A model generated the notes under the pieces. That model saw nothing but the letters and a program-made list of their open reading frames with translations. It was not told the origin of the DNA and made no database searches. Position numbers and translations under genes: made by a program. A DNA stretch of 63,782 bases, counting the filler, from Folioceros fuciformis (lineage: Eukaryota), in NCBI GenBank assembly GCA_049999805.1. It is 13 parts of 13 records of this genome, joined end to end, with 100 filler letters (N's around TTAATTAATTAA, not from the genome) between each part and the next. Parts side by side here need not be neighbours in the genome. Positions count along the whole stretch, not along the records: positions 39,878 to 44,779 come from JBNGIO010003222.1; 12 more parts are not named here. One strand, 5' to 3'. This document shows positions 26,178-63,782 of the stretch, piece after piece (positions within the stretch are counted from its first letter, which is position 1; each line of letters begins with the position of its first letter).

Positions 26178-27294
26178 TTTTGAGGCCGCTTCTTCTTTGG
26201 GGGTTTTGGCAGGTGTGTGCCAAGACCTCTAGGCCTCCAGTGGTGTGGATACTCCTCCAGGATCAAGAGGAGAAGAAGGAGAGGTCCTGCTCCACATTTA
26301 CCAATTTCTTTGCTTCAGTGATGCTGGATGCTACGCGCACTTCGCTGATGAAGACGTAGTGTAGCTTTTCTACCAATCTGTGCAATTTGCAGACCTGATG
26401 TTCTAACTTAGCAAGGTCTGGTTTTGGCAAATGATTTTTAAGATCAGGACTTAAGTAACTTAATTTAGAGATCTACTTGTGTTGATGAGAGTGACAGCAA
26501 CAAGTGCGCCTGTTCTAGGCAGCCGCGCGTGGGCGCGTGAACGGAGATTCTGACCACCTGCACTGATCTTGTATCAGATCAGGGTGCCAGCCACAAGAGT
26601 TGTGGCTGTAGTGTCTTTCGGATGTCGACCGAGATTGCGCCCTGACGTGAAGATGCCTTCGGTTAGGCATTTTCAATTTGCAAGGCACTGATTAAGCGGA
26701 GTGGCCAGCGCATGATGATAACCAGCCCAAGTCTGTGAGGCAGCCATGGAGTTGGCAATAGCGCTGGGACTGAGCGGCCATTATACAAATTTGTGGTCGG
26801 CTTACATATCGCTCCTATACCAATTCAGTAAACCAAACCGTGCAGCGGTAGTGTGATCGGAAGAGATGAACAAGGAATGAATTAGACTGAACAACTATGG
26901 GGAGGGACGCCCGTGGCGAACCTAGAGTGTACCCAACCGTCATGTCCAACGGTCGTGTCATAACAATGTGACTATTCAGATGGTGCTTAGTGAGATGGCC
27001 CTAACCCTAATTAACTAACCAGGATAAGGCTGTTCTAGAGTTAACTAGACCTACTATCATACAGACCAATCGTGGAACTAGATAGTATCAAGGAATTTTA
27101 CTGTTGGCAACCCACAATTTTGCCTAGTTTCTTAGTAAACATGATGAATACGAAGTGCTTCGTGACCATTGTTCAATATATTTGGAGGTCTTCCACACCA
27201 AATAGCATGAATCATGGATATGTGCCACAAAAAATAATGGAGAAAATCACCCGAAGCCTGATTTGGGGGAATACGACCGTTAGGCGCACATTTT

Positions 27295-30200
27295 GTTATG
27301 TAGAAAAGCAGTTGTAACATCCATTTGTTGTAAGTCTAAATCTAACTCAACTGCTAAGGCTAACAAGTATCTTATAGTTTGCAACTTAACTAGAGGCGAA
27401 AATGTCTCATGATAATCAACACCCGGAACTTGGCTATACCCCTTAGCACACAAACGTGCCTTGTAACGTTCTACACTACCATCTGCTTTCAATTTAATAC
27501 GAAACACCCACTTACATTGTATAGGCTTTCTATCATAAGGAAGCTTAACTAATTCCCAAGTATTATTTTCTATTAAACTATTGTACTCGGACTGAATAGC
27601 TGCCTCTTACTTCTCCTTGTCAGGTCTAGACAAAGCATCTTCACGTGTAGCAGGTTCAATAAGATCTATGGCTGCTATGTAAGCTTGGACTAAAGAGGCA
27701 TGTCCAGAAGTTAAAGTGTTAGAGTCTAAATTAGGTTCATTTTCTAAATTTGGTAAAGGCCCAACTAATGAATTATTATTTGAAATGGGTGTAGGTGAAA
27801 CATATGGTGCACAAACAAGAGCCGAAACAGGCTCCAAGGATGTGGCTTGGGGCACGCGTGGTTCTGTGTACCAGGAGGAGAGTGCATGATTAGATGTACG
27901 CCCGGGTTGAGCATGCGAGGAGGTGCATCCCTCCCTAGGTGTTGTATGCGCATCTTCAAGGTGGTAGGATTCATACCAAGCTGGGGGTTTGCGCACCCTT
28001 GTGGAGTGACGCGCGACAGGGGCTGCAGGCGCTAAGGAGCCATCATTCCCAGATGTGCTGGCCAGATTGTGTGGATCAGGTTGCTGCGAATGTGAGGGAG
28101 TGAGCGCTGCGGGTGTAGGGGCAGATTGTAGGCGCTGAGGTGCTGGTTGAACAGGGGTTGCTAGTTGGGAGGTCTAGGGGTCTGAGGAGGGTGCAGGCTG
28201 TGCATGTGGAGTGGGTACCTGAATGGGCATTGGCCCTTGTGCAGTGTGTGCAGGCTATGCGCTCCCATGATCCTCCCATGATCCAGATGGCTGCTGGTCA
28301 TCATCACTCCCACTCACATCTGCAAGGTCAGAATCCAAAGGAATTGCAACCTTGCCAGGATCGGTTGGTTCAGACACTACAGGATGGTCCATTCCCCTCC
28401 CTCTGCGGCTATCTAGCAGAAATTGCTCGTCAATAATCACACTCCTTGAATAAGTGACCCGCTGAGTCTCGGGGTTCACCAGCTTATATCCCTTGACTTC
28501 TTCAGTATATCCCACAAACAGCATCTTGCTGGCCTTGTCGTCAAGCTTTTGACGAAGTTGTGTGGGAATGTGTGCATATGTAGGTGTCCCGAAGATATGA
28601 AGATGCAGCAGCTTGGGTTTACGACCCGTCCAACCATCATAAGGAGTGACACCAGTAACAGCAGAAGTTGGAAGTCGGTTCTTGATGGAGGTCACCGTTG
28701 AAATAGCTTCTGCCCAATATTTGTGAGAGTCCAGAATTGTTCAGCATGGCTCGAACAGCTTCAACAAGCCATTGATCACATTGCTCGGCCACACCGTTTT
28801 GGGCTTGAGAATAAGGTACACTTCTCTGCATGATTATGCCTCAGGAGTTGCACAGATGTGCAAAGGCACCAGCTACAAACTCCCCTCCACCATTTGTACG
28901 CACAGCTTTCAGCTTGACATTAAGTTGTTGTTCAGCCATGTTGATGTACTCAAGAAATCTGTCTACAGCATTTGACTTATGCTGTAGAAAATATGTGAGT
29001 CATTCTGGTGGCGTCGTCCACAATAGGCATGAAATAAAGGGACTGATTAAAAGAAGCAACTAGCATAGGACCACATAGGTCTGTGTGGACCAGTTCTAAT
29101 GGACAGGGTGCTCGTGCTGCAGGACCAACAGGATAGGGGGACACACGACTCTTGGTATACACACATGATTCACAGAATGGCAAAGGAGACAACTGAGGTA
29201 GGGATTTTGAGTACAGGTTGCTTTGGCTGAGAGTTACTAACTTACGTGAGTTAACATGTGCTAGCCTATGGTGCCATAGCACAGATTGCTTAGGCTGAGT
29301 TAAATTGGCAATGTTGGTAACAGGTGTTGGGGACAGATCTATCTTGTATAGGTCATTGAAGGGTCGACCAATGCAGAGACATGACACACTAGGAGAACTG
29401 ATTGTGTCCTGGATCATGCAGGTGTCTCCAGCAAAATGAAAGCTGTACTCATTTGATATTGTAAGTCTACGAACTGAAACTAAGTTCTTTGACATTTGTG
29501 GGACATGGTAAACATCCTCTAACTTCAAAATTCTCCCTCCCTCACTAGACAACAACACAATGCCTCTTCGTTGTACCTGAAGGCCACTATCATCACCCAG
29601 CAATATGAAACTACCTGGTTCACAAGGATGGTAAGCAGAAAAGAAGGACCTTGTGTGACAAGTATGAGTTGAAGTGCCACTATCAATGTACCAGCTGTGG
29701 GTATCATTCTTGGAGGTAACCAAATATACTGCTAAGAGTACTTGTGATTTTTGCTGTACAATGTTTGTTGAAGGTGGTAATCTTCTCCTAGGCTCTCCAG
29801 CTTTTTCCTACGACACTCTTTTTCGTAATGGCTTGTTAAATATATAAGCTGGCACGGCTTAGGGTTTAGAAATATATTGTTATAGTCATACATCCAAAAG
29901 ACACCTTAAGTAGGGTTGCCTAGATAGAAGTACTTAGAACACACAAACCTACTTTACTTGTATGGTATTATGTTTATGTTCTCAATTAGACCTTTGCTTT
30001 GTTTTCCTTTTTGCACTCTGACCATGGTTCTACCCGAACATGGCCTTCTACTTGGCACCAATGACAGGCTCCTTTTCTCCTTGGTGCTGAAGATGGCCTA
30101 TTGTTGTAAGGAGAACGGCCTCGTCCGCGTCCTCATCCTCATCCTCTCCCTCTGCCTCGTACTACAAAGAGAGCTCGACCTTGGGCTGTAGCATTTGATG

Positions 30201-31479: not shown

Positions 31480-34400
31480 GCAGACTGCTAAGACCATTCA
31501 CCTTCTAAATCCATTTAGTTTTAAACCTCAACTTTCCCAAAGACCGTGGGCGTTCACCTACCCCAAGGGTAGGTGTGATTCCAATGTTCTTCATTCCCAG
31601 GAACTAGGAAACCCGCCGACTTCCACTCCTTCTGCTTGAATCGTTTCCAATAGGACTGCCTCATACCTTTTGCTGCAATCAATAGGTGCTCCTAGATGCG
31701 CCATAGCAGAGCTTTAGATGAGGCTGACACCGAACCTCCATATACCACAGAAGACCAGTTGACCCAAAGGTGGAAAAGATAAGAAGACCACAATAACCCC
31801 CAGCATTGTGACGGAAGTAGAGCTTTGCCCGATGTTGCATCCAACCCAAAGAGGGCAGTTTGTTTCGTGATCCTGAGGTTGGTGCTGGGAAGAATTCTAT
31901 GCAACCACCTGCCCACCTTACTCCATATCTCCTGGGCAAAGCTGCAGTGGAAGAACATGTGCTGACTGTTTGGAGCACCCGAGGAGCACAATCGACACTG
32001 GTCTTCTCCCGTAGCCACCAACAACCCATCCCATCGATCCGCATTAGGCAAATAAGCTTGAAAAAAACACCAAACTGTCGTCCTAACCTTGGCGGGAATT
32101 CCGTCCGTCTGACTTCCAAAGTAGCTTGATAGCTTCCTTTTGTCGCCGCACAGAAAGCTGTAGCTGGGGAGCCATTGGATGCCTTTGTCTGATTTTTGGC
32201 ACTCGCACCAGCCAGAGGAATATGTCGGCTATTAGGAAGTTGAAGAATGACCGAAGGCTGTCCGCCTTGCACCCTGGACGTCTGGGCCATTTGTAGAGAT
32301 CTGGTCTTAATGCCAAATCCCAATTCTCCGCAAGGCGGAACCAACATCGGACACCTGGTTTGTCCAAGGTTGATTGTCCACTAGGGCCTTCGAGTTGAGT
32401 GAACCACCGCCCTGCATGACCAGACTTAGAGAGGACCGTGATGGCCCGTAGTTCCCCTCTTCGGACATCACCATCGTTCTTGCCCTGACGTTCCAAAAGC
32501 CCTTCGGGCGACATGACCTTGAACGTTTGCAAGTTTTCTTTGTCAGCCGTACCTGAAAGCCAAATACCCCTATCCAATTCAAAGTCATCCTCCTATTCAT
32601 CCTCCTCAGAATCTGCGTCCTTACTACCCATGGAGTACGTATACAACCCCTCAGCGTCCAGGGAAGGTTGTTGCCTTAAAACCTATTGAACCTTATCCTC
32701 TAGTCCCTCTTGCAGCCATGAAAAAATGAGCCTAACATGTCTAGCTACTAACTCAAATTCTTCCTTGACCTCCGCCACCTCTTTCCAACGGGCCTCTGAT
32801 CAGTTCCATAAGTGACCAAGTTGGTTAACTCCTTTCCGACACACCAAACCGAAGATTTGTGACCGATATACCCTAGCCCTAAATTCTTGAGCCCACAGTC
32901 TTGAGAATCCTTGCAAAGGCACTCCCAGAACGTCATCAACCTACATGGGGTTACCTGGGACAATGTACCACTTGACTTCTAAGTAGCCGCTCTAGATTGA
33001 CTTGAAGAGTGAGAAGCACTCTACAGTACTTGTCTGCAAGGATGTTGTCAATAGATCTCCTTCCCTGAGGAACAGCTTGCGTGCACTCCAGATGCTGTGT
33101 TAGCAGACTCTTCCAAGGGTAGTAGGCAAGATCCACCGCCCTGACAACCCATTGAGCATGCAAGACTTTCATCTTGGCAACCGGGTCAATCACCCCTAGG
33201 CCCCCCAATCATCGTGCCTGAATAATGTGATGCCAAGCCACCTTAGAGCACCTCGCTGAGTTGTCCCCCGCACGGTTCCACAGGAATGAGGTCAACATCT
33301 GTTGCAGCCGTTTCACCTCTGCATTGGAAGGGGCCCACAAGAACAAATAACACCAAAGAGAGGCTATTAGGATATGGTTAATCACCACCAACCTTCCTGC
33401 CAAGTTAAGTTCCAACATCTGCAAGCTCACCGCTTTACGAATGAATATGAGGAACGCATACTTCCCTATCTCGCCGTTCTCATCCCCTTCATGGAAGGGA
33501 AGTCCCAAATACTTGTGAGTGGACCCTTGCGACACCCTCAGGATATGGCAGATGCATCAAGGCAGCTCCCCTTCTGTGTGTAGACACATCATGCGGGTCT
33601 TCCCCCAATTAACCTTGCAACCCAACAACTCCCCAAAAGCCTCAACCTTCCGGAGCAAAGCATTCAAAGAGGTCTCCTCTGCCGAAGAAAAATTAAGGGT
33701 ATCATCTGCAAACGCCGAGACCCTTAACTGCGATCCATCTGGATTGTGAACACCCTTGACTGCCTGATCTTGCTTAACTGCCCGGAGGAAGAAGTCATTC
33801 ACGATAATAAATAAAAATGGAGCCAGGGGGCACCCCTGACGTACCGACCGATGAATGCCAAAACGCTCCGTAAACGCTCCATTAATGGCTACCTTGGCTC
33901 CTGCATCTTCACACAAAATGGCAAACCCCCCACAGAAGTTATTCCCAAACCCAAAGCTACGCAAGCATCTCCACAAAAAGTGCCACTCAATGGAATCATA
34001 CGCCTTGCAAAAGTCTAGGGAGATGAAGACAACAGCTTTCTTCTGAACCTGGACATTGTCCTTAGCTTCCCGCAAGAGTAGAAGGTTGTCCAGAATGCAT
34101 CGATTTTGGATGAACCCCCTCTGCTCTTTCTCAATCCAATTGTCCATAAAAGGCTTGATGCAGTTGGCCAGTACCTTGGCTATCACCTTGTACGTAGTTG
34201 TAAGTAGGGTGATTGGGCGCCAATTGGAGATTGATAGACTGGCGTCTTGCTTAGGTGATGACCCCCATGTTGAACCAACTCCCCATGCTGCCCTCTTCCC
34301 AGATCATGGCCATGGCCTCCATGAATAAAGGCTCTATAAACTCCTAGCCCCAAAGCAGGAACTCGGGCGGGATACCATTGTGCCCTAGGGATTTATTCCT

Positions 34401-36108
34401 CGGCATCCCCTTAAGAGCCTGGAGTACTTCCTCAACTGTAGTCGGCTTATTCAATGCCTTGCGTTGGGCCTCGGACACCTTAGCCGAGAGTGATCCGTAG
34501 GAAGCTGACCACAGCTGTTCCCACCCCGCCACCTTCCCCACACTCGAGAAAATACCCACAAAGAAGAGGGTAATGAGCTTTTTTAAACCTTCCAGCGACT
34601 ATTGCATCACTCCTTGAGCATCTGGAAGAGCAGGAATTCTTGACCTGTGCCGGTTAGTAGCACCTTGTGGAAGAAGAACTTAGACGGGCCGTCCCCTTCC
34701 CTCACCCACTTGACCTTAGCCCTTTTAAACCAGCCTCTGGCTCTGTCTTCTTCCAACTTGGCCAACGCGCATTGTACCTCCGTTTTCTGGGCTGCTTCCT
34801 CAATTGTGAAGTCTCGCTCCTCCCCTTTCCTTTGCAACCAGCTTAGTTCCTCTCTCCAAAGCATTCTTGTTGACGCAACTCCTTCGCCCGTTGGACCCCC
34901 TGCCTCCTCAAGTATCTAGTTGCTTCTCTTTTAGCGTAGATCAATCTAGAAATAGCAGGCTCTTCCCCCGTTCTAATCCTTGCCAGATGTTTTTGACATC
35001 CTCAAACACCCTTTTCTCCTTGAGAAAGGACTTGTTCATTCGAAAGCTTTCCATATGCCTCCTTCGTCACCCCGAGTCCGGCGCAAGCCTCAAGTGCAGG
35101 CTAATTAGATGATGATCAGACAAGATCGTACCAGCGAGGATACTGTACGCGTGCACACAGGCCAACCACCCAGCAGGAACATAGAACCTGTCTAGCCTGC
35201 GCGCTCCCAAATTCTGCTGTTGTTGGTTAGTTCAGCTGATCTTCAAGGATTGCGGTTGACGATGCGCTGGGAGGGCTAACCACAAGTCCTGAACAGCCAA
35301 GACGGTATCTCTTAGTTCCTGCCAAGACATAGGCACCGACTGAATATCAACAGGGCTCTCCCCTCGGATATCCTCCCGCCTTTCAACAAAGTTGAAATCC
35401 CCAGCCAGCATCCACGGGATGTGCTCATCCAGATGTTCCCCCAACCTGCACCAGAGATTGCTTCAAGGATTGTGGTTGACGTTGCGCTGGGAGGGCTAAC
35501 CACGGGTCCTGAACAACCAAGATGATATCTCTTAGTTCCTGCCAAGACATGGGCACCGACCGAATATCAGCAGGGCTGTCCCCTCGAATATCCTCTCGCA
35601 TTTCAACAAAGTTGAAATCCCCAGCCAGCATCCACGGGATTTGCTCATCCAGATGTTCCCCCAACCTGCACCAGAGATTGCTCCTATTGGTGGCAGCATT
35701 GGGAGCATAGATGTTACATATGCCAAGTGGGCCTTGGGTTGTTTGCATCACCAGCCACACAAATCTTCCACCTTCATCGTGGCCCATCTCCAAGATATTG
35801 TGAGTGTGTTCTTGGTTTATAGTAATGGACACACCTCCCCGGGTTGCTGATACTCGCTGAGTCGAATGTCCCCCATTGTTTACATCTTCTGCTCTAGCTG
35901 CCACCCATTCTGTTCTACTTGGAAGGAAAACCTTCTTCACTCTCTGGATATGCTCCGTAGAAAGTTTATGCTCCTGTAGGCAAACAATATCCCAAGTGAC
36001 CTCCTTTTCTAACAAGTGTTTTAGTCTCCTACACTTCGAGGCCGTCTTTGACCAACCCCCTAAGCCTCTAACATTCCATGAAATGATTCGCAGGTGAGGC
36101 CCCCTCAT
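31480..36108 (-). mobile_element. L1-clade LINE ORF2 (APE endonuclease, RT, zf-RVT), disrupted
   Basis: SWNVRGLG, CLQEHK, NIYAPN, GDFN; RT LDFCKAYD, RQGCPLAP, FADD; GGLGV; C-terminal CRLC....SQHMFFHC. Short A-tract at about 31308 is a candidate 3' end. Confidence 0.93.
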
Positions 36109-36114
36109 AGTTTT

Positions 36115-39100
36115 TTAGGGTGTCAATACCCATTTATATGGTCTTGCTTGAGAATCTCTTGACCGCAGCAGGTTTGGGCACCCTAACCCCAGACATGAGC
36201 CTAGACCAAGGCAGCTGGTTATTAGCTTTAAGGTCAAGGGACATTCTTTGAAGTCGTTCAGATTTTCGTACGACAGGTGTACTCTTTTTGCCCCCATCTC
36301 TTGTGAACCTATCAGGGTCTCCCACTGCTATTATTGGGATCTAAGTCCAATTTTTCTCCCACTGCTATTATTGGGATCTAAGTCCAATTTTTCTCCCACA
36401 ACACGTCCAAGGACCACCTCCAATCGAGAGTATGCGGCATAGCTGGACCACATGCCTGTTTTAGATGGATATCAGCAAAATAATGCTCACCCATCTGAAA
36501 GACCCCACTGAAGAACCCCACCTCCTTGCCTTCCTCGCTCGCAAGAACACCTCCGGATGACAATGTTGCAAAAATCCTTTCCCGCTCTGAATGAAGTTGT
36601 TGCACTGGAATGAGGATTGGAAGCAGCTCTCCCTTGTCTCCTAACTTAACCAAGTACGAGTAAGTGTCTTGTATCTTACTCGTCACCGTAAGGTGAACTA
36701 AGAAAGGTTTGCCTTTCCACTTAGTTACTTTTTCCGTCGTCCTACTTCCCTGCCCACTCATCACTCTAGGATTCTCCTGCCCAGACACGTAGCACCCTTG
36801 TTTCACCATCATAGCCTGATCCCAGCTCTTCTCCCATGAATGACTTGGAGAAAAACATCCTTCATCCCAAAAAAAAACAGCCTGAACCTCATGCCAGACA
36901 GGTTCACCCTCTTCATCATCGTCTGCACACAGAGTTGTGAACAGGTCGTCCTCAGAAGCATAAATTGCATTCTCACGCATGATGGGGCTTCCGCCATCAG
37001 ACAACTCCTTTGTCAGACTGACTGAACCGTTTTCTACCTCCCTAGCGCTCTTTCTCTCCTCAGTACTGCGGTTCCCACCCCCTACCAAGGGAGCCATCAT
37101 CTCACCATTAGAGCATGGCCATCCGCTGAACCACCCTATTCACGGCTTTCCTTGCTTTGGCCACAGTAATCTGGTCCTGCCGCTTACACCTTGCTAACGG
37201 ATCTTCCGAGGTCTTGGTCCTCTTCCCCGCAGCACCCTCCGCGTTTTTTTGTTTGGTTGGTATCCAACCAGACACTAGCTCCATTAGCTCGGTTGGGGAA
37301 GCTAGAACCGATCTTACGGCCGGATCCAGCTCTCCAGCGGAGCCAGTTCCCCGCTGTTGTTCCACTAATTGGGAGGCCAATGCCAAATCACTGACTAGTG
37401 TTGAGTCCAACACCGAAGAACCGAGACACCTTTGCCCTTGGAACTTCAAAGCCTTCCCCACGCCCTCATCAATTGCCTCTGCAAGAAACCTTGGCCCTGG
37501 CCCCCGGCTCAAGCCCGGCGGCGACACCGACTCTGAGTCATGCACCCATACTCCCTGAGAAGGTGCAGCCGTTGTTGCTCCAGTCTCGGTATCAGAATTT
37601 GCTAATTTCCTTGTGGGCACCCTTTCTTCCTCCACAATCCTGGAGACAGGGGACCCTTTTAACCCACTCCTGTGGGCGATCCCAAGGCTAGCCTGAATCT
37701 CCCAGCCCCTGAGGATTTGCTGGTGTCCATCCTCGGAAGGTTTATCAGCTACTTCACCCACCACCCTTACCAGCGTTCCAGACCCCGGCTCCATGCTGCA
37801 GACCGAAGGCGGCTGCGTCTCCCAGCCTTGAGACCTGGACTCCTGAGCAAAGGGACCCGACAGTGTTCCTATGCCGGTGACCTCCTCTTCTAAACCCCTT
37901 GGAATGCCCAATGCCCCACCTCGTTCTCGGTGTCTGGGGGGCGTTTGGCCTCTTCAATCTGTTGTCCACCTTTGCACAGCTCATCCTGCACATCAGAGAC
38001 TAGTCCCTGTCCACAAACCTCTTCGTCCACCTGGTCTCCCACCATGACAGCTCCTAGAATTGCCCCAGAAGCAGCCCTGGACAAGAGGGAAGCGCCATGC
38101 AGGCTCACCCTTGGGGATGCTCCGACATCGGTGTCAGCGACCGAGGCACTGCCTAGAAGCGCACAATTCTCCCCCTCAGACCTGGATGCATGGTTTGTCA
38201 GCATCCCTTCCGCTTCCTGCCCACCTGAGACCACCGCTACCTTAGAATCAGCATCCATCTCCTCGTTTGCTAGGTGCTTGGCGGTGGAGCTTCCTTTCGA
38301 ATCCATCACATCACCCTGAACAACCCCGACTTGGACCTCACTTGCGCTGGGAACTAGCTGCTCATCCTAGAGCCCCCATCCAGATAGGAAATTCTTTGCA
38401 CCAGACTCAATAAGCGAGGCCTCGTCACCCCCAGCTGAATTCGGCGGCAACAGCGACTCTGAGCCGTGCACCCATACCCCCTAAGAAGGCGTGCCTGCTG
38501 TTGTTCCAATTTCAGTGTCGGAATTTGCGCACCTCCTAGTGAACGCCCTTCCTTCCTTCACAAACCTGGAAACAGGGGATGCTTTTAATCCATTCCTATG
38601 AGCGACCCTAGGGCTAGCCTGAATCTCCCGGCCCCTGAGGATTTGCTGGCGTCCACCCTCTGAAATCTTTTCATCTGCTTCACTCACCACCCTTACCAGC
38701 GTTCCAGACCCTGGCTCCATGCTGGAAATTGGAGGAAGCTGCATCTCCTAGCCTTGAAGCCTAGGCTCCTGAGCAGAGGGACCCGACAATGCTCCTATGC
38801 CGGCGACCACCTCTGTCACAACGCCTTTGTAAGTCCAATTCCCCACCTCGTTCCTGGCACCTCGGGGACGTTTTGCCTCTCCAATTTCCCATCCACCTAT
38901 GCACAACTCATCCTACCCTTCAGAGATCGCTCCCTGTCCATAAACCTCTTCCTCCACCTGGTCTCCCGCCTTGGCAGCTCCTAGAATTGTCCCAGAAGCC
39001 GCCTTAGACAGGAAGGAATCGCCATGCAAGTTCACCCTTGGGGGTACTCTAGTGACGGCGCCAGTGACCGAGGCACCGCCTAAGAGCGCACCATTCTCCT

Positions 39101-39777
39101 CCTCAAAATTGGATGTGAGATCTTTGAGCATCCCGGCCGCTTCCTGCGCACTTGTGGCCAACACTTCCGTCGCATCAACATCCATCTCCTCATTCGTCAG
39201 GAGCTTTACGGTGGAGCTTCTTGTCGAATCTTCACCTTGAAAGGCCCCGACTTGGATCTCGTTGGCGCTGGGGACTAGCTGCTCATCCTGGAGCCCCCGT
39301 CCAAATCGGTGAATCCCTGCCCCAGGCTTTATAAGCAAGATCTCTTCTCCCCCAGCTGAAGCATCCAAACCAACGGCACCTTGGCCACTCTCGCAAAACT
39401 TGCCACAGGCTTCATGACAAACTCCAACCCGCTCCAACCCCGCCTCCAGGAATGGGGAGGAAGCGCCTTGCAAGAAAGCCCTTGAGGGATCCTTAGCAAC
39501 TTCGAGCTTTGATTGTGCACCAACTTCCCAGCCCGCACCCGTGATGTTCAACAGATAAGAATCGCGTGATTCTTCATCCATCTGAGCCATGAACACTACC
39601 AGGAATTGCTTTGTCTGGTCCTCCATGACCTGCCCAACTGTGTACAGCGCCTCCATCTCCTCATCTTTCTTCCCCTCATACGCCTTGAGGTTAAAGATTA
39701 GGATCGAGGAGGCAAGGAGATCGAGATCGGGCAAGGCGAGAGTGAAAGTAGAAGAGATATTTTTATTTCAGACCATG
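36115..39777 (-). mobile_element. Decayed LINE ORF1 / 5' region with a large internal tandem duplication
   Basis: Long low-complexity minus-strand ORF fragments ending just before the ORF2 ATG (36108). A ~926-bp unit is duplicated at about 37520-38440 and 38446-39360. Confidence 0.6.
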
Positions 39778-39877
39778 NNNNNNNNNNNNNNNNNNNNNNN
39801 NNNNNNNNNNNNNNNNNNNNNTTAATTAATTAANNNNNNNNNNNNNNNNNNNNNNNNNNNNNNNNNNNNNNNNNNNN

Positions 39878-39932
39878 CTATAATAACTAGCCGCAATTAT
39901 TAATTAGCACATATTATCCAACACTCCCACTT
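39878..39932 (-). mobile_element. PPT (AAGTGGGAG, 39932-39924) and start of copia 3' LTR (TGTTGG from 39923)
   Basis: Purine tract directly followed by TG, about 1 kb downstream of the RNase H stop. Confidence 0.75.
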
Positions 39933-40032
39933 GGTGATGATAATTTGGTGAAGTACACAACGGCTTGTACCCCTCGCTGCTGACTCCCAGTGAGGAACTC
40001 GAATAGAACACATACTCCATTACGTTCCAGCT

Positions 40033-40903
40033 GTGAGCATCGCCAGTGAAGATGCCACCGCCTGGTACAGACACCTGTATGAAAGCTCCCGAGCTGAGGT
40101 GCGCTGCTGCAATTTGTTTCTTGTTCTTGATCACCAGGTTCCTTTGCGAACTCATACAACGGGGGATTGGAAACCTGGACGGCCGCTGGGAACTACCAAG
40201 GAGTTTCTGGAGCGCAACAAACGCGGTGTGGTGCAGACTGTTTCCAACATGGCTGGTCCCTCTGCGCCTTAGCGACAGCCATCACCACCCCCTGCGCCTG
40301 TAGAAGACGAAGAGTTCGTGGTTTCGCCCTTTACCAGAGTGCTCAACTTGGATGTGGCATACTACAGTGACGGCTCCAAGAGCCGCATCCCGGTACGCCT
40401 GCCAAAGCCCAAGTGTCGTGGTGAAGAGACGAAGGTTGTGACCTATGGCACCCTGGAGTTCCCTTGCTCTCCGATCTGGTACAAAGCTTGGGTTGACTCA
40501 GAGGAACTGACGATGAAGAGGGTGAAAGTCCTCCGCTGCAGATGCTTTCCTGGGCATGTTGTTAGTCTGTACATTAAGATTACAAACCCCGTTCACTGCT
40601 TTTCACTACTACTGAAGTTGATGTCTTCAAGTTGCTTGTGGTTTTACTGACTGATCCCACTTGTTGTGGACAGAGTCCACTAGGCGTATCAGGGAGGAGT
40701 GGAAGATGTTGGAAGAAGCGAGAGCGACTGGTGATGAAGCCAAGTATAAAGAATTGTGCCGCCTGAAGCCTTGCAAAGACTGGGCGCCCGATGCCTCCTT
40801 CAAGACTAGAGATGAGTCTACCTTTGACACTGTTGAGGCTGGAACTGAGATAGTGTTAGATGTGATATCTGATTCTGATAACTCAGTCTCCTCGGGCTTT
40901 TAG
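40033..40903 (+). pseudogene. Antisense accessory ORF of unknown function inside the copia 3' internal region (disrupted)
   Basis: Lies between the pol stop (40915) and the PPT. Peptide blocks align with 62764-63706(-): GRPLGTTK, LNLDVAYY, PVxLPKP, ETKxVTxGTLxxPCSP, KRVKV..RCF.GHVVS, R..EEW. Confidence 0.7.
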
Positions 40904-40914
40904 AAGTAGATGGT

Positions 40915-43900
40915 TTACTCTGAATTGGATAGGAGTGCTTCTGCATCTCCTATGCCCAAACGTTGCATGTGCTTAAAGTGTAATTCTCTGCTTAAGGCTT
41001 TCGTCAATATGTCTGCTGGATTATCCTGCGTCGGGACATATTGTAAATCTATTTTGCCTTCATTCACGAGCCCCCGTATGTAGTGGTATTCTACCCCTAC
41101 ATGCTTTGTTCTCGAATGAAGAACTGGATTTCTTGCCAAGGCCATTGAGCCCTGATTGTCAGTATGTATAGTGATGCACGTTGGTATTTGAATACCTAGC
41201 TCCTTAAATAGCAACTGACACCAAACGATTTCCTTTGCAGCCACGGTCAGGACCCGATATTTTGCTTCCGTTGAAGACAGAGCAACTGTTGGTTGCTTTT
41301 TGCTTGACCAACACACTGGACCTGCTGCTATGGAAATCACATATCCTGAAACCGACTTTCTGCTGTCGATATCACCGGCATAGTCCAAGTCTGTAAAGAC
41401 TTCAAGGTCCAAGGGCTGTCCTTTTTGATGCTTATACGTAATCCCTAACTTAGATGTACCTTTCAGGTATTTGAATGCACGCTTAAGACTTGTCCAGTGC
41501 TCCACACCTGGATTTTCCAGAAACTGTGACAATACACTCGTAGTGTAAGCAATCTCTGGTCTTGTTGTATTACTGGCGTATATCAACTTGCCAACACCCT
41601 GTCTATAGGGTATGTTTTTCACTTGTGCCTTTTCGTCTCTAGTTACAGGTGACATGGTCTTGCTTAGTTTCTGACCAGTTGCCATGGGCGTTGATGCAGG
41701 CTTAGCATCCTTGAGGCCAAGCTGCTCAACACAATCCAAGAGGTAACGTGGTTAAGTCAGAGTCATGACCCGAGTCTTCCTGTTCCATTGGATGTGTATC
41801 CCTAGGCAACTCTGTAGGGGGCCTAAACAGGACATCTTGAATTTGGTGGCCAATACATCAGTTATACTTGTTATGAATGCCTGGCTGTTACTGGATAGTA
41901 TCAAATCGTCCACATAGACTGCTAGGTAGCATATAACCTCTCCTTTCAAGTATATGCACAAGCTGCTGTCAGCCTGGCTCTTTGTGAACCCAAGCTGTAG
42001 AAGTTCTGTGTCTAAAGCAGCATTCCATTTCATTGCTGATTGTTTTAACCCGTATATACACTTGATCAGTTTACATGCATAGTTTTCCTTTCCTTTCACT
42101 TCGTACCCTCGTGGTTGTTGCATGTATATCTCTGTATCAATCTTGCCATATAGGAATGCAGTTTTAACATCATACATCTGTATCTCATAATCATAGTATG
42201 TTGATATTGCAAGGAGGATACAAAGTGTGGAGAGCTTAACAACTGGTGAGAACGTTTCAAGATAATCCAAGCCAGGGATTTGAGAAAATCCCCTCGCCAC
42301 CAAACGAGCCTTGTACCGGTCAAAGGTACCATCCGCTTTGACTTTAAGTTTAAAGACCCACTTGCATGAAACCAGCTTTCTGTCAGGAGGTAACTCCACC
42401 AGTTCCCATGTTCCGTTTTCAATTAATGAGTCATATTCTGACTGAATAGCTTTCCGCCATCTTTGTGATCAGGTTGACGCAGTGCCTCTTCATATGACTG
42501 AGGCTCAATAGGATCAAGTGAACTTGCAGCGTTGACAAGCACATGAGAGGAAGATGGACGAAAGTCCAAAGCACGGTAGTAATCTGGAGGTTGACGCTGA
42601 CGGGATGGATACTGTGTACCGGGTTCTTCTGCAACTTGTGGTAGATCAGGTAAGTCAGCGTCTAGGGTAGGCTCAATGATATCAGCAACTTGTTCTTGAG
42701 GATGGTAGTCATGTGGATCCGAAGGATGATCTGGAACATCTGGCGGTACAGTTACTTCAATGGCATCATCAAGGCCAACAAGCTCAAAACCTGCAGGATC
42801 ACCTAAATCATCAACTGGATCTTCCCCCCCCACAGGGGCAACATCCTCAACGGGAAGAACTGGGGTGCTGTGATCAGTCTGGTCAAATTGCGAATCAGGG
42901 AAGGCGGATATGTCTGAATCATCAATGGAGGAATCCTTGGATGCTCCCACTGAAGACCAAGTGCGCCATTCAGCAAAGGTAATGCTTCGAGCATATACAA
43001 TCTTGTTTTTAGAGGCATCATAAAGCTTATATGCTTTAATGCCCTCTGTATACCCTAACATCAATAGTTTTTGAGATTTATTAAATAACTTTTTCCGTTT
43101 TTCCTTCGGGATAAAGGCATATGCGATACATCCAAAGATACGCAAGTGGAGTATAGAAGGCTTGCGCCCTGTGAACGCTTCATAAGGGGTAATAAGACCA
43201 ACTAACGAATTTGTAGGAAGTCTGTTTTTAAGGTAGGTAGAAGTCATAATAGCCTCTGCCCAGTATGGAAGAGGAAGCTGAGCATGATGAAGGAAAGATG
43301 ATGTCATCTCTTGCAGTGATAGGTTGTTTCGCTCAGCCACGCCATTTTGTTGAGGCGTGTAGATAACTGTAAGCTGGCGACCAATACCCTCAGCAGTACA
43401 GTAATCCCGAAACTCATCAGAGGTAAACTCTCCCCCATTATCTAATCTTAGGGTTTTTAATTGTTTGCCGGTCCATCGTTCCACATACTTGAGATACTCT
43501 TTAAAGTAGCTAAAGCATTCATCTTTGTGCTTTAGAATATAAGTTGTAACAAAATGTGTCTTATCATCTATAAATGTTAGGAAATACTTGCCACCACCAA
43601 TGGATGCTTGGGAGAGTGGGCCACACAAGTCAGTATGGACAAGTTCCAAGACATCTGAAGCTCTGTGTGGCTCTTTGTTCTTGAAGGCTGCTTGATGGCG
43701 CTTCGTAAGAGCACAAGACTCACATAGTGGAAGTGGCACAAGAGGACCTATCTGCCCATGCTGGTATAAATCACTTACAACTAGTTTTTGTAGCTTAACA
43801 GAGTGTGGATGACCTAGTCGTAAATGCCAAAGTTTTGACTTCTCTATCTGCTGTGCAGACACTTGAGAAGATCCTTCAGTCAAATGGGCATGTGGCTTAC

Positions 43901-44779
43901 GACTGTCTGTATGAAGACGAAACAAGTCTTTCTCTGAAGACCCAAAGGCAAGTATTTTCTAATGATTAAAGGCATTTAACACTTGACATTCTGTTTGAGT
44001 AAAAAGAATGTGACAGTGATTATCAGAATTCAACTTCCTTACGGAAATTAAGTTACGTGTCATGTTTGGTACGTAGTACACATCATGTAACACTAACACA
44101 TTTCCTGATGGTACTGACAGGTCTATGGTACCAATACCAGGAGATACAAAGGATCTATTATCCCCCAGGTATACATACTGATCCTTGACTGATCTGTACG
44201 TTTGAAATGCCTTTCTATCCAAGCATATGTGGGCAGTAGCCCCTGTGTCTAAATACCAGTCTATGGTATGTTGAACCTTTGTATGTGTTAACAAACAGGC
44301 AGGTGACAAGAACGAGCTTGTAGCAAAGACTGTTGTACCAACTGTGAGGGCAGAGGGGGTTGGTTGCTTCTTAATAACCACGTGAGTCTCAGCGCTGGTT
44401 GAACCCTCCTTGCGAGGAACACCAGCCTACTTTTTCCTGCACTCACGCTCCCAGTGACTAGGTAACTTCTTGCATTAGTTGCAATTTCCTGTCCTTTTGG
44501 GTTTTCTTTGACTGGCTCCACGTCCTTGTGAGCCACCTCCTCTTGAGGTACTGCCCCCACCCCTATTGTAGGGTCTTCCTCCTCCACGTCCTCAGTTAGA
44601 AGTGAAGAGGGCTTGCTGTTTACCAGTGCGTCTGCTTTGTGTTTTGTTGGCTTCCTCTTGCAATAAAGCTTCCACTAACTCTGCAAAGCTTGTTTCAGGT
44701 AGGGTTACACCTGAAGCCTTTGCAAGCTTTTCAGTCTGGAGCTTGGAGGCATTGAAGGATGTCACAAAGTGTGACCAAG
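40915..44779 (-). mobile_element. Ty1/copia gag-pol (gag C-terminus, PR, INT, RT, RNase H), lightly disrupted
   Basis: CKKLPSHWEREC knuckle, WYLDTGATAH, LWHLRLGHP, VHTDLCGP/DNGGEF/NGVAER, YVDD, RNase H SSTEAKY..DNQG..HSRTKH..ADILTK. Confidence 0.97.
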
Positions 44780-44879
44780 NNNNNNNNNNNNNNNNNNNNN
44801 NNNNNNNNNNNNNNNNNNNNNNNTTAATTAATTAANNNNNNNNNNNNNNNNNNNNNNNNNNNNNNNNNNNNNNNNNNNN

Positions 44880-46878
44880 GCTGCACAGAAGCAGGTCGGA
44901 GGCGCGTCCGGTGAGAGCCAGTCTGCTGGCCTGCTTCTCCGACGATTTCCGCCTGGCAGCGACCAAGTCCGACTCCGACCTCTCTTCCCCCTCTCCACCC
45001 AGGCATTCTCAGTATTCACTGGCGGAGGCTCAGGGGCCCAAGGATGTTGCTTCCAGGAAATCCGTGACCGGGACTGGCTCCGGCTCCGGTTCCGGCAACA
45101 GTCCACCCAGGCCTTCTGCGCACCGCAGGTCGCTCTCCTTCAGCTGCATGTCCAATGCGGGAGCCGCGGGGGACAGCCCCGACACCCACCACGGCCGGAT
45201 CCCGCATCTCCCGCTTCTTCACCATGTGGTGTCCCCTCCCCCTTCCCACGAACTCAAGTCTAATGCGTGGGAGCAGGGTAGCGCGTTGCAGGAGCTTCAC
45301 AACCAGGTAGTGAGGAAGGAAGTGTCCATGAGGAAGAGGAGCCCTGTGGACGCTTGCTTCAGACCTTCCAATGCCGATGATGACCATTTGGATGAGGATG
45401 CGATGCTAGTGCAGGATCATGTCAAAGAGAGCACCGATGTAGACAATTGTTGCGGCTTTAGGTTGAGCACGTCGTCGGGAGGCGGGGATGGGATAGCGGA
45501 GCCCAGTGCTGTGCTTTGGGAGAAGGGCTTCTCGTCGGCTACTACCAGTGAGGATCCGGAAACCAGTTTCTTCACATCTATCGAGGCCGACTCCGCATGT
45601 GTCACTCCTAGGAGCTCGAGGCCCGTGCCTGCGCCTGTGCCTGTACCTTTACCTGCTACCTTTACCGCCTTTCCGTCTGAGCGAGGGCAGGCCAAGTGTG
45701 CCAGGACGGAGGAGCCCTGGGAGGCATCCTTCATTCCCGAGGAGCGCGAGCTTTCTTGTCCCTCGTCGGACTCGGAGACGGACTCGGACATCGACATGCC
45801 AGCCGTGGAGTTCTCGGAGGCCATTAGTGCCTGGGATACTGACGACTCCACAGCTGATCGGAGCTCGGGGGAGGAGAGCCCCAGCCCCATCTCCAGCCCC
45901 GCTTCTTCTTGTCGCATGGAGCTGGCCGTGATGGTGGAACAGATGGACAAGGCTGACAGTCAGGATGCCGAGGATTACTCCACCCACGATTCTCTGGAGC
46001 TGGAGGAGCGAGGGCTCAGGATTAGGACACGCCAACCTCTGCAACGCGATGGCCGTGGGTTCCCAGAGGGCCAAGCCAGTCCTTGCGACTCCTCGGTCTC
46101 GTCCACAGGAGCAGTGTGCGAGGAGGTCCGTGCTCGGGAGCTGGAGCAGCAGATTATGTCAGTCAGCCCGCGCATCCGCATGTGGGAGCCGCTTTCTGTG
46201 GCAACCACCGATGGCTGCACCACAGAGGATGAAGAGGACATGGAAGTGAGTCCGGCGTACGGCTGGGAGGAAAGCTTGCTGGCCATGAGGAAGTGCAGTT
46301 TCTCGTCTGATGACGACTACTTCGTTCTCAACGACCTGGAGGCCCGCCAGGGACGTCATGTGGTGTCCCCGGACCAGAGTCCGGACAGGCTGGAAGTCCA
46401 TCACCTCAAAGCAAACAAGGCGAGAACCGGGAAAAGGGAAGGGAGCCTTGACAGGAGGAGGTCAAGTGCCAACAGACACACCAAGGCTGGTGTTCAAGCT
46501 AGACCACGGTTGGGATATTCAGCTATGAAGGAAAAGCAGACGCGCAGGGGAGTGAAGGAGTCTCACATGACGACCACGACAAGACACCAAGGCCCAAGGC
46601 CTTCCCCTTTATCGACTGCCGCCCAAATGCCACCTGACATTCTAGGGAAAGTGCGGGAAAGTGTGCCTGTAGTAACCCGCTCCTATGATCCCTACGGGGA
46701 CTTCCGGGACTCCATGCTGGAAATGATCGTGGAGAAGGAGATCCTGGATACACCGGACTTGGAGGAATTGCTACAGGCTTACCTTGCCCTCAACTCTGAA
46801 GAGTATCATGGACTGATCGTGGAGGTGTTCACAGATTTGTGGTACGAGATCTTCGAGTCTGAGGAATCAGGGTACTAG
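44880..46878 (+). CDS. OFP: OVATE family protein (transcriptional repressor); 5' end cut by spacer
   Basis: Open frame of more than 650 codons. C-terminal OVATE domain ESVPVVTRSYDPYGDFRDSMLEMIVEKEI...LEELLQAYLALNSEEYHGLIVEVFTDLW, preceded by a long Ser/acidic region. Confidence 0.9.
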
Positions 46879-62763: not shown

Positions 62764-63706
62764 TATCAGCCTCCACTCCTCACTGAGCCTCTGGGCAGAC
62801 CCTGTATTTACAGCCAAGAAGATATGTCAGCAGGTTCCAAAGATCACGGAAACCTGCAGACAGTGGTCAAGAAATATCAAAGCACAAGGAAACCTGTAGG
62901 AACAGCAACAACAAAAAGAAATCAAAGGCAGGGGCTTACTGTAGAAGCTCACAACATGGCCTTCGAAGCACCTGCTTTGCTGCACCTTCACCCTTTTCAC
63001 CCTCTAAGCCAACCCAGACTTTATATCAGACAGGAGAGCAAGGATACGCAAGTGTGCCACAGGTCACGAGCTTGGTCTCAGTCTGACAGTTCACAGGCTT
63101 GGGCAACTTCACAGGAAGGTGACTGCTTTCAGCATGATGGTAGTAGGCGACATCTAGGTTCAGAGTCCTGATGATGGGCATGACTTCGTCACTCTCGCTG
63201 GACTCTGGCAGTGTCTTAGGGCGCGGCTGCAAGTCGGACGGACCAGGCGCCTCAGCTTCAGTCTTCAGCGCAGCAAGTTTGCGCTTCTCCAGAACTGCCT
63301 TGGTGGTTCCCAACGGCCGCCCAACCTTCGGCTTGGTGATTGCAGTCACAGCTCCCATCTTCCCGCTACGCTCACTCTCAATGGTAGCTGTCCTTGGCGC
63401 GAATCGACCTAAAGCATCTCGGCGGTGGCGGTGCTTAGTGATCCGATCAGAATTCGAAGAATCAGACATGGTGGTGATGATGAGCAGCTTGGCGATCTCC
63501 AAGTCGAGAAGCTCACAGATGATTCTGACAATGAAGAACACCAAGAATATAAGGGTGGCACATCGTGGTACCATCTTTATTACGCCCAGCGGTGTGCGCT
63601 CCGCAAGATCCATGTGGCGGCCGTAAGTGGTTGGGGAGTAATCGAGAACTAGGTCTGAGAGTTGAAGTGCCGTTTGATGCAGGGGTACGAAGGGTAGCTG
63701 AAGCAC
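62764..63706 (-). pseudogene. Second, diverged copy of the retroelement antisense accessory ORF
   Basis: 226-codon open stretch with hydrophobic segment, RRDALGRF, GRPLGTTK, LNLDVAYY and PCSPV*YKVWV, continuing as VKRVKVQQSRCFEGHVVSFY; candidate intron 62939-62802. Confidence 0.7.
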
Positions 63707-63726
63707 ATGTTTGAATCATCACCAGC

Positions 63727-63782
63727 AAGTGGGAGTATTGAATGAAGGATGTTTAATTAGTATATGCTGGTTATGATTAGTT
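63727..63782 (+). mobile_element. PPT (AAGTGGGAG) and start of 3' LTR of a plus-strand LTR element
   Basis: CATCACCAGCAAGTGGGAG|TATTG matches CATCACCAAGTGGGAG|TGTTG at 39939-39919(-). Confidence 0.65.

Follow-up and report, generated by a model that had tools for sequence, protein, structure and literature searches.

The window analysed here is a stretch of 63,782 nucleotides from Folioceros fuciformis in which contigs are chained by N44-TTAATTAATTAA-N44 linkers. The minus strand of one 4.9-kb contig (39878-44779) corresponds to a decayed Ty1/copia pol, which we delimited at 40915..44381 from Pfam matches and ORF pieces and which is broken into at least four ORF pieces in two frames. Its domains follow the order protease barrel, integrase, RT and a C-terminal piece; on the minus strand, Pfam places Pol_BBD at 43959-44381, the families rve, gag_pre-integrs and SH3_retrovirus at 42423-43925, and RVT_2 at 41752-42399 (E 1e-58). 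The location of the integrase ahead of the RT is the Ty1/copia order, and both the domain order and the RVT_2-type RT of this element conform to it. The 3' terminus of pol is the minus-strand ORF 40915..41739, with its stop at 40915-40917; for this last piece (40918-41739) Pfam gives nothing significant, and its assignment to RNase H is by position only.

Further along the same strand, the polypurine tract (PPT) AAGTGGGAG can be read directly at 39932-39924, and it is followed by the start of the 3' LTR, of which the contig includes 46 nt (39878..39923, minus strand, TGTTGG from 39923); we read these directly, and they align with the LTR start of a second copy described below. This LTR is not comparable with a 5' LTR because the contig stops 46 nt into it and does not include the 5' end of the element. 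The word depth in DNA contigs of the same organism is 106, 67 and 112 over 39878-39932 versus 29, 18 and 60 in the next bin, which supports the LTR call indirectly. The window also holds other copia fragments at 1910-3847 (plus) and 27289-29297 (minus), with 36-59% identity to this pol, and the antisense protein discussed in the following paragraphs has no match at either of them.

The stretch of about 1 kb that separates the PPT from the stop of pol carries plus-strand coding pieces, with open frames at 40273-40650 and 40661-40903. The last of them ends with a TAG at 40901-40903, and 11 nt (40904-40914) lie between it and the pol stop, in a tail-to-tail arrangement. The coordinates that the original prediction had given for the pol stop, the PPT, the 3' LTR start, the final antisense stop and this 11-nt spacing were all borne out. 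The length of the open frames does not exceed chance expectation, since the longest stop-free run, of 125 codons, was reached in 147 of 2000 shuffles; it is by comparison with a second copy of the region, not by ORF length, that the observation rises above chance.

This second copy was located by blastn and tblastn at 62764-63782, in the last contig of the window, with approximately 63% identical DNA, and it is the only other match to the antisense gene within the window. Rather than a host locus or an unrelated element, it adjoins a copia-type PPT and LTR start (63727..63782, plus strand): the PPT AAGTGGGAG at 63727-63735, a 9-mer identical to that of copy 1, is followed by the first 47 nt of the LTR, which starts with TATTGA and runs to the contig end. 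By blastn, 30 nt of this segment align at 83% identity with the corresponding position of copy 1, and the copia identity of copy 2 is read from the PPT and LTR start only, because its contig ends before pol. The distance from the PPT to the first ATG is 114 nt in copy 2 and 120 nt in copy 1, with the same orientation. The antisense ORF is carried by two of the two copies of this copia family in the window, and DNA contigs of the same organism contain pieces of about one further diverged copy. The latter covers exon 1 (40318-40578) with approximately 82-85% identity and shows there two indel pairs, each of net zero length; a single 591-nt contig resumes the similarity at 40869, and another contig of 130 nt crosses the tail-to-tail junction at 40847-40974.

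The comparison of the two copies resolves what had been described as coding fragments into two exons around a conserved intron, plus disabling mutations. In copy 1, an upstream coding segment (40052..40165, plus, frame 2) begins at a candidate ATG and takes in a hydrophobic helix; 13 of its 34 aligned residues are identical in copy 2, with a pN/pS of 0.40. Its local score of 57 is above the null maximum of 42 (200 shuffles) and only slightly favours the gene strand over the opposite strand, which scores 47. This segment is out of frame with the remainder of the gene because about 163 nt of copy 2 (alignment columns 297-459) are missing in copy 1. The exon 1 core follows (40165..40573, plus, frame 1; in-frame TAG at 40270-40272), with 70 of 127 aligned residues identical to copy 2 and the invariant blocks GRPLGTTK, LNLDVAYY, LPKP and PCSP. 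Exon 1 of copy 2 lies on the minus strand (62940..63613), has its candidate ATG at 63613 and is disabled by an in-frame TGA (63028-63026) and by a frame change between 63011 and 63003.

The intron is found at the same codon and in the same phase (phase 1) in both copies, where it measures 100 nt in copy 1 (40574..40673, plus, placed by its splice contexts) and 138 nt in copy 2 (62802..62939, minus). A branch-like CTGAC and a CAG acceptor are common to both: TACTGAC stands 27 nt ahead of the acceptor in copy 1, and CTGAC 28 nt ahead of it in copy 2, whose donor is GTAAGC. The donor position reads GT in copy 2 and TT in copy 1, which has an in-phase GT 9 nt upstream (40565). In the intron interior the copies show no similarity beyond the null (score 26; null 95% = 32), gap columns amount to 46/142 versus 14/404 in exon 1, and the read-through translations of the two introns are unrelated and both run into stops. 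The similarity restarts precisely where the acceptor ends the intron: of 12 residues compared, 5 are identical, EEW among them. These are the first 12 codons of exon 2, at which the contig of copy 2 ends (62764..62801, minus). In copy 1, exon 2 (40674..40903, plus, frame 2) remains open to its stop at 40903 and encodes a product with a predicted helical start, an acidic Ser/Asp tail and a pI of 4.67. The disabling changes of copy 1 are one TAG, the missing 163 nt or so, which include part of the N-terminal region, and the non-GT donor position. Both copies of the gene are dead, as is pol.

We then consider the substitutions between the two copies. In a Nei-Gojobori analysis of the DNA alignment, the proposed frame has a dN of 0.366, a dS of 1.565 and an omega of 0.234, a rough value because dS is saturated, with one stop per copy. 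The other five frames, taken as a six-frame control, have omegas of 0.459-1.507 and 2-10 stops; the best opposite-strand frame is also below 1 (0.459), which is to be expected when wobble positions are shared. The contrast between synonymous and non-synonymous changes is significant by a Fisher test (p=5e-10), differences occur at 67 of 131 third codon positions versus 79 of 259 first and second positions (p=1.1e-4), and a protein-guided codon alignment gives a pN/pS of 0.445 (bootstrap 0.33-0.59). Although the test involves two copies, both of them broken, the alignment shows a signature of purifying selection in the proposed frame only, of the six, and the substitutions fit the codon pattern of that frame only. 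Instead of a dN/dS of about 1, the frame has the lowest of the six values.

After splicing, the antisense protein would have about 300 residues and would comprise an N-terminal hydrophobic helix of membrane type, a basic stretch with the invariant GRPLGTTK, a Cys/His-bearing core and an acidic tail. The Kyte-Doolittle means of the helix are 2.53 and 2.17, the latter being the 19-residue mean of the copy 1 segment. This helix is the only part that AlphaFold models with confidence (10-residue block means of 92 and 81, residues 21-40), the mean pLDDT being low for both the core (43.9) and the N-terminal 195 residues of copy 2 (50.3). AT-hooks are defined by an R-G-R-P core flanked by basic residues; the conserved block (V/P)GRPLGTTK does not have the first Arg and has no Pfam AT_hook match, and is at most AT-hook-like.

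The peptide had been described as unlike gag or pol, in agreement with which none of the three plus-strand pieces matches any Pfam family at E<=1; the same holds for all five antisense pieces (three searched at E<=1, two at E<=0.1), with no known env-like or other described accessory domain among them. A word-index search of 5.8 billion clusters gave no significant match (one candidate for copy 1 exon 1 and 219 for the two-copy profile, none of which scored, and no candidates for exon 2). The three HMMER matches at E<=1e-3 among 1.84 billion representatives are tandem-repeat translations, in 4-6 stretches, and were judged spurious, and a sequence profile search of the PDB returned nothing at E<=1. 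In the ESM Atlas, look-alikes of DDE-transposase fragments were weak (128-139/256 features, recognition 1828) and were judged unusable, and a second query gave no usable match (recognition 1431). A metagenome scan yielded 113 pattern matches, from which three loci passed tblastn. One of these (L002) is a chance match, a bacterial ORF that resembles outer-membrane receptors and happens to include NRLNLDVAYY; the match statistics of the other two (L001 and L003) are the same. Scans of IMG/VR found no relatives of the antisense profile or of the pol C-terminal piece, and Rfam (E<=0.1) and Tandem Repeats Finder reported nothing over 39878-41000. Altogether, the libraries searched contained no relatives of the antisense protein in other organisms.

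Our best explanation, to which we give a probability of about 0.72 to 0.75, is that a Ty1/copia family carries, in antisense and placed after the end of pol and ahead of the PPT, a real, selected, two-exon spliced protein-coding gene. The original prediction of a copia family with its own antisense accessory gene gains support from the layout of copy 2, the omega of the proposed frame and the lack of a domain match. The gene has the location of an aORF-3R, antisense between pol and the 3' LTR, and, judging by the two copies, it is conserved as a coding sequence.

According to this explanation, transcription would start at an antisense promoter within the 3' LTR or at its margin, as suggested by the mere 114-120 nt from the PPT to the first ATG, and the mRNA would be spliced. 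Its 3' end would enter the RNase H coding region and would therefore be complementary to the sense RNA of the element. An antisense intron is kept in genomic RNA, which is the principle of antisense-intron retrotransposition reporters; likewise, the intron described here would survive retrotransposition because, being antisense in the genomic RNA, it could not be removed from it. Selection would act on the lineage while it replicates, and the individual copies would decay once inserted, which would account for a low omega together with stops and frame changes. As for function, our best guess is a trans-acting regulator of the expression or silencing of the element, possibly membrane-tethered, with the antisense RNA adding a dsRNA-based control; to any specific function we give a low probability at most.

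A more far-reaching version would make this a third gene in the manner of retroviruses, evolved in a Ty1/copia lineage of a land plant, spliced and driven by the 3' LTR in an HBZ-like arrangement, whose membrane-anchored orphan protein would be needed for propagation and could govern, for example, the silencing of the element or particle traffic. We regard this version as unlikely. If true, no earlier accessory gene of this type would be on record for the copia superfamily, and the antisense intron would parallel in nature what retrotransposition reporters do by design in the laboratory.

We also consider it improbable that a host gene was captured once together with its intron, in antisense, by a transduction such as that of maize Bs1, and has travelled since as a passenger without a role for the element. 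The GC3 of the antisense ORF (0.58-0.61) is closer to that of the host Ovate gene (0.68) than to that of pol (0.34-0.46), the intron is of the spliceosomal type, and transduction is discussed as one possible origin of such ORFs in excerpts of PMC7264820. However, a passenger should show an omega near 1 between copies so diverged, instead of the observed 0.23, and the searches of the 5.8 billion clusters and 1.84 billion representatives produced no host or other homologue, but only the three tandem-repeat artefacts. Capture as an origin is also compatible with our best explanation, and only the absence of a role is disfavoured.

Another reading, which we consider very improbable, is that of a domesticated host gene with two paralogous loci, each next to remnants of old LTRs, under selection at the level of the host and not as a part of a mobile element. 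An omega below 1 would fit such a constraint equally well, and the contig of copy 2 is without pol; nevertheless, both copies have stops or frame changes, copy 1 ends tail to tail 11 nt from a full-length though decayed pol, the third diverged copy also crosses the junction between the two gene ends, and the PPT-to-ATG spacing is kept. The equally improbable notion that there is no gene, and that chance frames in a non-coding 3' region of the element are conserved through cis-acting RNA or DNA signals or a sense-strand reading, would suit the chance-level frame length, the lack of protein homologues and the low ESM Atlas and AlphaFold scores, but is contradicted by a three-base substitution periodicity specific to one frame, by the 2-6 stops per copy and omegas of at least 0.46 in the sense-strand frames, by a similarity that is lost in the intron and comes back at the acceptor, in the very frame that splicing would give, and by the lack of Rfam matches and tandem repeats.

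The interest of a spliced antisense gene in a copia family is that accessory genes are what divides simple retrotransposons from retrovirus-like elements. The nearest retroviral parallel is the HBZ gene of HTLV-1, which lies in antisense at the 3' end of its provirus; the 3' LTR drives its transcription, and the transcript is spliced. HBZ is the gene of a retrovirus of animals and encodes a bZIP protein, whereas in our case Pfam detects neither a bZIP nor any other family and the LTR promoter is only inferred. Env-like proteins have a predicted hydrophobic helix, as does the protein predicted here. Excerpts of PMC7264820 and PMC11963269 draw the analogy with retroviral antisense genes. A further likeness is found in Drosophila TART, whose antisense transcripts have introns (PMC1636488, in the part available), although TART is a non-LTR element of an animal host.

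Within Ty1/copia, the env-like eORF-3'F of the SIRE clade (Sirevirus), present in 74% of SIRE elements, is likewise an additional ORF, located past pol and before the 3' LTR, with heterogeneous, orphan-like sequences (PMC6317226, in excerpt). The SIRE ORF follows pol in the sense orientation and is far longer, being detected there by a rule of at least 250 codons, whereas the conserved frame of our gene is opposite to pol and attains about 300 codons only once spliced; no similarity between the antisense protein and the SIRE env-like ORF was detected. Surveys that require uninterrupted ORFs of at least 250 codons, the rule given in that excerpt, are unable to detect intron-split accessory genes. 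In the full-text literature searched, no paper described a copia element with a spliced antisense gene; antisense ORFs may be included among the extra ORFs of 582 copia elements that PMC6317226 lists, by orientation, in its additional files.

The antisense accessory ORFs of plants have so far been documented for Ty3/gypsy elements of the Tat/Retand type, where those known as aORF-3R or eORF-3'R lie between pol and the 3' LTR: gene23 of maize Grande, rice RIRE2, Silene Retand (TRP28 proteins) and bean pvRetro13. According to the excerpted text of PMC7264820, they are opposite to gag-pol, kept across copies and without clear database relatives, as is the gene described here in the copies compared, and PMC11963269 cites Gomez-Orte 2013 under a title that attributes to the Grande gene transcription from its own promoter and a nuclear protein. 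There are also differences. All those carriers are Ty3/gypsy, including pvRetro13 and 14 more bean families whose ORF2 is on the opposite strand (PMC4093653, in excerpt), whereas the carrier here is Ty1/copia; their pol-to-LTR regions measure 2.9-6.6 kb in the available text of PMC11963269, compared with about 1 kb; and Transposase_28 (PF04195), the mark of the Retand/Tat TRP28 proteins encoded by 97% of Retand clusters, is absent from our antisense pieces in Pfam searches. The word "intron" does not occur in the text available for PMC7264820 and PMC11963269, whereas our gene is split by one. We class the gene with the antisense accessory ORFs of Tat/Retand elements, as a new variation on them; if selection has indeed kept it, the antisense accessory strategy would have arisen independently in the copia superfamily, and a far smaller system, of about 1 kb and 300 codons, would be at hand for studying the role of such genes.

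The antisense gene lies on the plus strand of a 4902-nt contig (39878-44779), whose minus strand carries a Ty1/copia polyprotein gene. According to Pfam, this gene runs from Pol_BBD, the upstream-most domain (43959-44381), through gag_pre-integrs, rve and SH3_retrovirus (42423-43925), to RVT_2 (41752-42399, E 1e-58). The last piece (40918-41739) gave no significant Pfam family and is assigned to RNase H from its position. Pol is broken into four or more ORF pieces that lie in two frames, so this copy of the element, hereafter copy 1, is decayed. Its pol stop occupies 40917-40915. The polypurine tract (PPT), AAGTGGGAG in the minus-strand reading, is found at 39932-39924, directly followed by the LTR start TGTTGG from 39923, of which 46 nt are present up to the contig end. 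The depth of DNA contigs from the same organism is 106/67/112 over 39878-39932 vs 29/18/60 in the next bin, which fits a repeat boundary there. Between PPT and pol, the plus strand contains open frames whose final TAG (40901-40903) is 11 nt from the pol stop. On rereading the sequence, the pol stop, the PPT/LTR, the coding pieces and the 11-nt gap were all found where the original prediction had placed them. In one DNA run from the same sample, X3, C>T (128) and G>A (189) differences are in strong excess over 39878-41500; bisulfite-converted reads leave this signature, and methylation data for the copia element may therefore exist.

The ORFs by themselves are not beyond chance, since the longest stop-free run in the region, 125 codons, was reached in 147 of 2000 shuffles; it is a second copy that decides the matter. 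Searching the window with the region by blastn and tblastn returned one other match, in opposite orientation, on the last contig (62764-63782, minus strand). In this copy 2, the same AAGTGGGAG (63727-63735) precedes an LTR-like start (TATTGA) and the end of the contig, and the distance from the PPT to the first candidate ATG is 114 nt, compared to 120 nt in copy 1; both copies therefore have the same layout relative to the element end. In the exon 1 core (40165-40573 in copy 1), they are identical in 62.6% of 390 ungapped columns. Pieces of a third copy, about 82-85% identical, occur in contigs from two DNA runs of one sample. They span 40318-40465 and 40436-40578, one 591-nt contig resumes at 40869, and a 130-nt contig (40847-40974) crosses the junction between the end of the antisense gene and that of pol; in exon 1, both reported indel pairs are net zero. 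These contig pieces, which are not a census, support the layout as a probable family trait. Two copia fragments of other families, at 1910-3847 (+) and 27289-29297 (-), share 36-59% protein identity with the integrase/RT of copy 1, and neither matched the antisense protein.

To compare copies 1 and 2, Nei-Gojobori values were calculated in all six frames from a plain DNA alignment built with no protein guidance. The proposed frame has a dN of 0.366, a dS of 1.565 and an omega of 0.234, with one stop per copy, while the remaining five frames have omegas of 0.459, 0.838, 1.003, 1.407 and 1.507, with 2-10 stops. The copies differ at 67 of 131 third positions vs 79 of 259 at the first two codon positions (p=1.1e-4), and synonymous changes exceed non-synonymous ones per site (Fisher p=5e-10). 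A protein-guided alignment of 139 codons gave a pN/pS of 0.445 (bootstrap 0.33-0.59). The omega value is rough because dS is saturated, yet its direction, as judged from the alignments, is not in doubt and indicates purifying selection. Three blocks are invariant between the copies: GRPLGTTK (8 residues), LNLDVAYY (8) and PCSP (4).

The similarity between the two copies ends directly after GHVVS(L/F)Y and restarts at S..R..EEW, delimiting an intron that starts after the first codon base (phase 1) in both. It measures 100 nt in copy 1 (40574-40673, plus strand) and 138 nt in copy 2 (62939-62802, minus strand), and exon 2 follows at 40674-40903 in copy 1. The donor is GTAAGC in copy 2; in copy 1 its position is occupied by TT, with an in-phase GT 9 nt upstream. 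Both copies have CTGAC 27-28 nt before a CAG acceptor. Gap columns represent 46 of 142 in the intron vs 14 of 404 in exon 1, translated similarity of the copies within the intron was not above the shuffled null (26 vs a null 95% of 32), and reading through it yields unrelated peptides that run into stops. An antisense intron is not spliceable from the sense RNA of the element, a property on which antisense-intron reporter cassettes are based, so this one is copied through reverse transcription. Its presence in two long-diverged copies implies that the gene has travelled with the element.

The gene probably extends beyond the ORF previously seen. The frame of copy 2 is open from just past the PPT, with a candidate start ATG at 63613, and a hydrophobic segment ahead of that ORF is encoded in both copies (40052-40165 of copy 1, in another frame), with 13 of 34 residues identical. 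Its local score is 57 vs a null maximum of 42, and with a score of 47 for the best frame on the opposite strand, the strand call is weak. About 163 nt present in copy 2 between this segment and the GRP block are missing from copy 1, which thereby loses part of its N-terminal region and changes frame; a TAG at 40270-40272 further interrupts it. The damage in copy 2 consists of a TGA at 63028-63026 and a shift of frame between 63011 and 63003, so that both are now pseudogenes. Such a pattern, which pol shares, is expected if a gene is under selection in the lineage that replicates and decays after each insertion.

None of the five antisense pieces matches a Pfam family. No relative of the protein appeared in word-index searches of 5.8 billion clusters or in IMG/VR, nor any match in the PDB sequences, and recognition by the ESM Atlas was low, with no usable match. 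A HMMER pass over 1.84 billion representatives gave three matches, all tandem-repeat artefacts. Three JGI metagenome candidates passed tblastn; the one examined (L002) is a bacterial receptor with a chance match to LNLDVAYY, and the match statistics of the other two are identical to its own. AlphaFold is confident only for an N-terminal helix of copy 2 (residues 21-40; 10-residue block mean pLDDT 92 and 81; overall mean 50.3), the core model being unusable (mean 43.9). The Kyte-Doolittle 19-residue means of the helix, 2.53 and 2.17, are above 1.6, the usual threshold for membrane helices. The pI is 9.3-9.5 (basic) for the middle part of the protein and 4.67 (acidic) for exon 2. The product may be membrane-tethered or nuclear. 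The GC3 of the antisense ORF is 0.58-0.61, compared to 0.34-0.46 in pol and 0.68 in an Ovate gene of the neighbouring contig, which hints at host origin or adaptation to host expression. This Ovate gene, a 655-codon ORF at 44911-46878 (+) on the contig following that of the copia element, has its Ovate domain (PF04844, E 1e-24) at the end and is identified by its sequence as a putative plant OFP-type transcriptional repressor gene. From this domain, which is not known outside plants, the host is judged to be a land plant.

Neighbourhood cannot be assumed across the joins of the window, which has at least 13 contigs separated by N44-TTAATTAATTAA-N44 linkers (e.g. 39778-39877 and 44780-44879). 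Elsewhere in it, a LINE-type element on the minus strand (33557-36108) comprises RVT_1 at 33557-34186 together with a piece of the endonuclease/exonuclease/phosphatase type at 35425-36108; the presence of another such endonuclease fragment at 35232-35545 points to a duplication or to a copy nested in the element. Long minus-strand ORFs at 37108-39734 repeat each other: a stretch starting SMEPGSGTLVRVV is present in 37108-37911 and 38481-38744, and the ORF at 37890-38309 is similar to 38913-39734. These ORFs seem to reflect a unit of about 1.2 kb that is repeated.

The original prediction of a copia family with its own antisense accessory gene is supported by a second copy in the same layout, the omega of 0.234 and the lack of a Pfam match. 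The comparison of copies shows, at the sequence level, what we read as a two-exon antisense gene carried by the element and maintained by purifying selection, and the evidence for a selected gene is good, its base being two or three decayed copies. The transcription start would lie within the 3' LTR or at its edge, as 114-120 nt leave too little room for a promoter. The mRNA would be spliced, with its 3' end overlapping the RNase H coding region in antisense, and the product would act in trans on the cycle of the element itself. The overlap may, in addition, contribute to a dsRNA-based control like that proposed for gypsy antisense ORFs in the relevant portion of PMC7264820.

The same portion describes conserved antisense ORFs between pol and the 3' LTR in Grande, RIRE2, Retand and pvRetro13. 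In Table 2 of PMC4093653, pvRetro13 is Ty3-gypsy, as are all 15 bean families with an opposite-strand ORF2, and the two copia families that carry an extra ORF appear separately there. The Retand antisense ORFs, in the part of PMC11963269 concerned with them, mostly encode Transposase_28, and the pol-to-LTR regions measure 2.9-6.6 kb. PMC6317226, in its account of extra ORFs of at least 250 codons, reports them in 582 copia elements of 45 groups, the sense ORF of SIRE being the only one named there as characteristic. The breakdown of these ORFs by orientation is given in additional files of that paper and may include antisense ones. Full-text literature searches returned no paper on a copia element with a spliced antisense gene. 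The defining features of the TRP28 and SIRE env-like groups were tested and are absent from the copia gene, which therefore belongs to neither. By layout, and by function as far as this would hold on the copia side, it is of the same kind as the gypsy aORF-3R. Antisense accessory ORFs are thus known; what appears new here is one in a copia element that is compact, intron-split and orphan.
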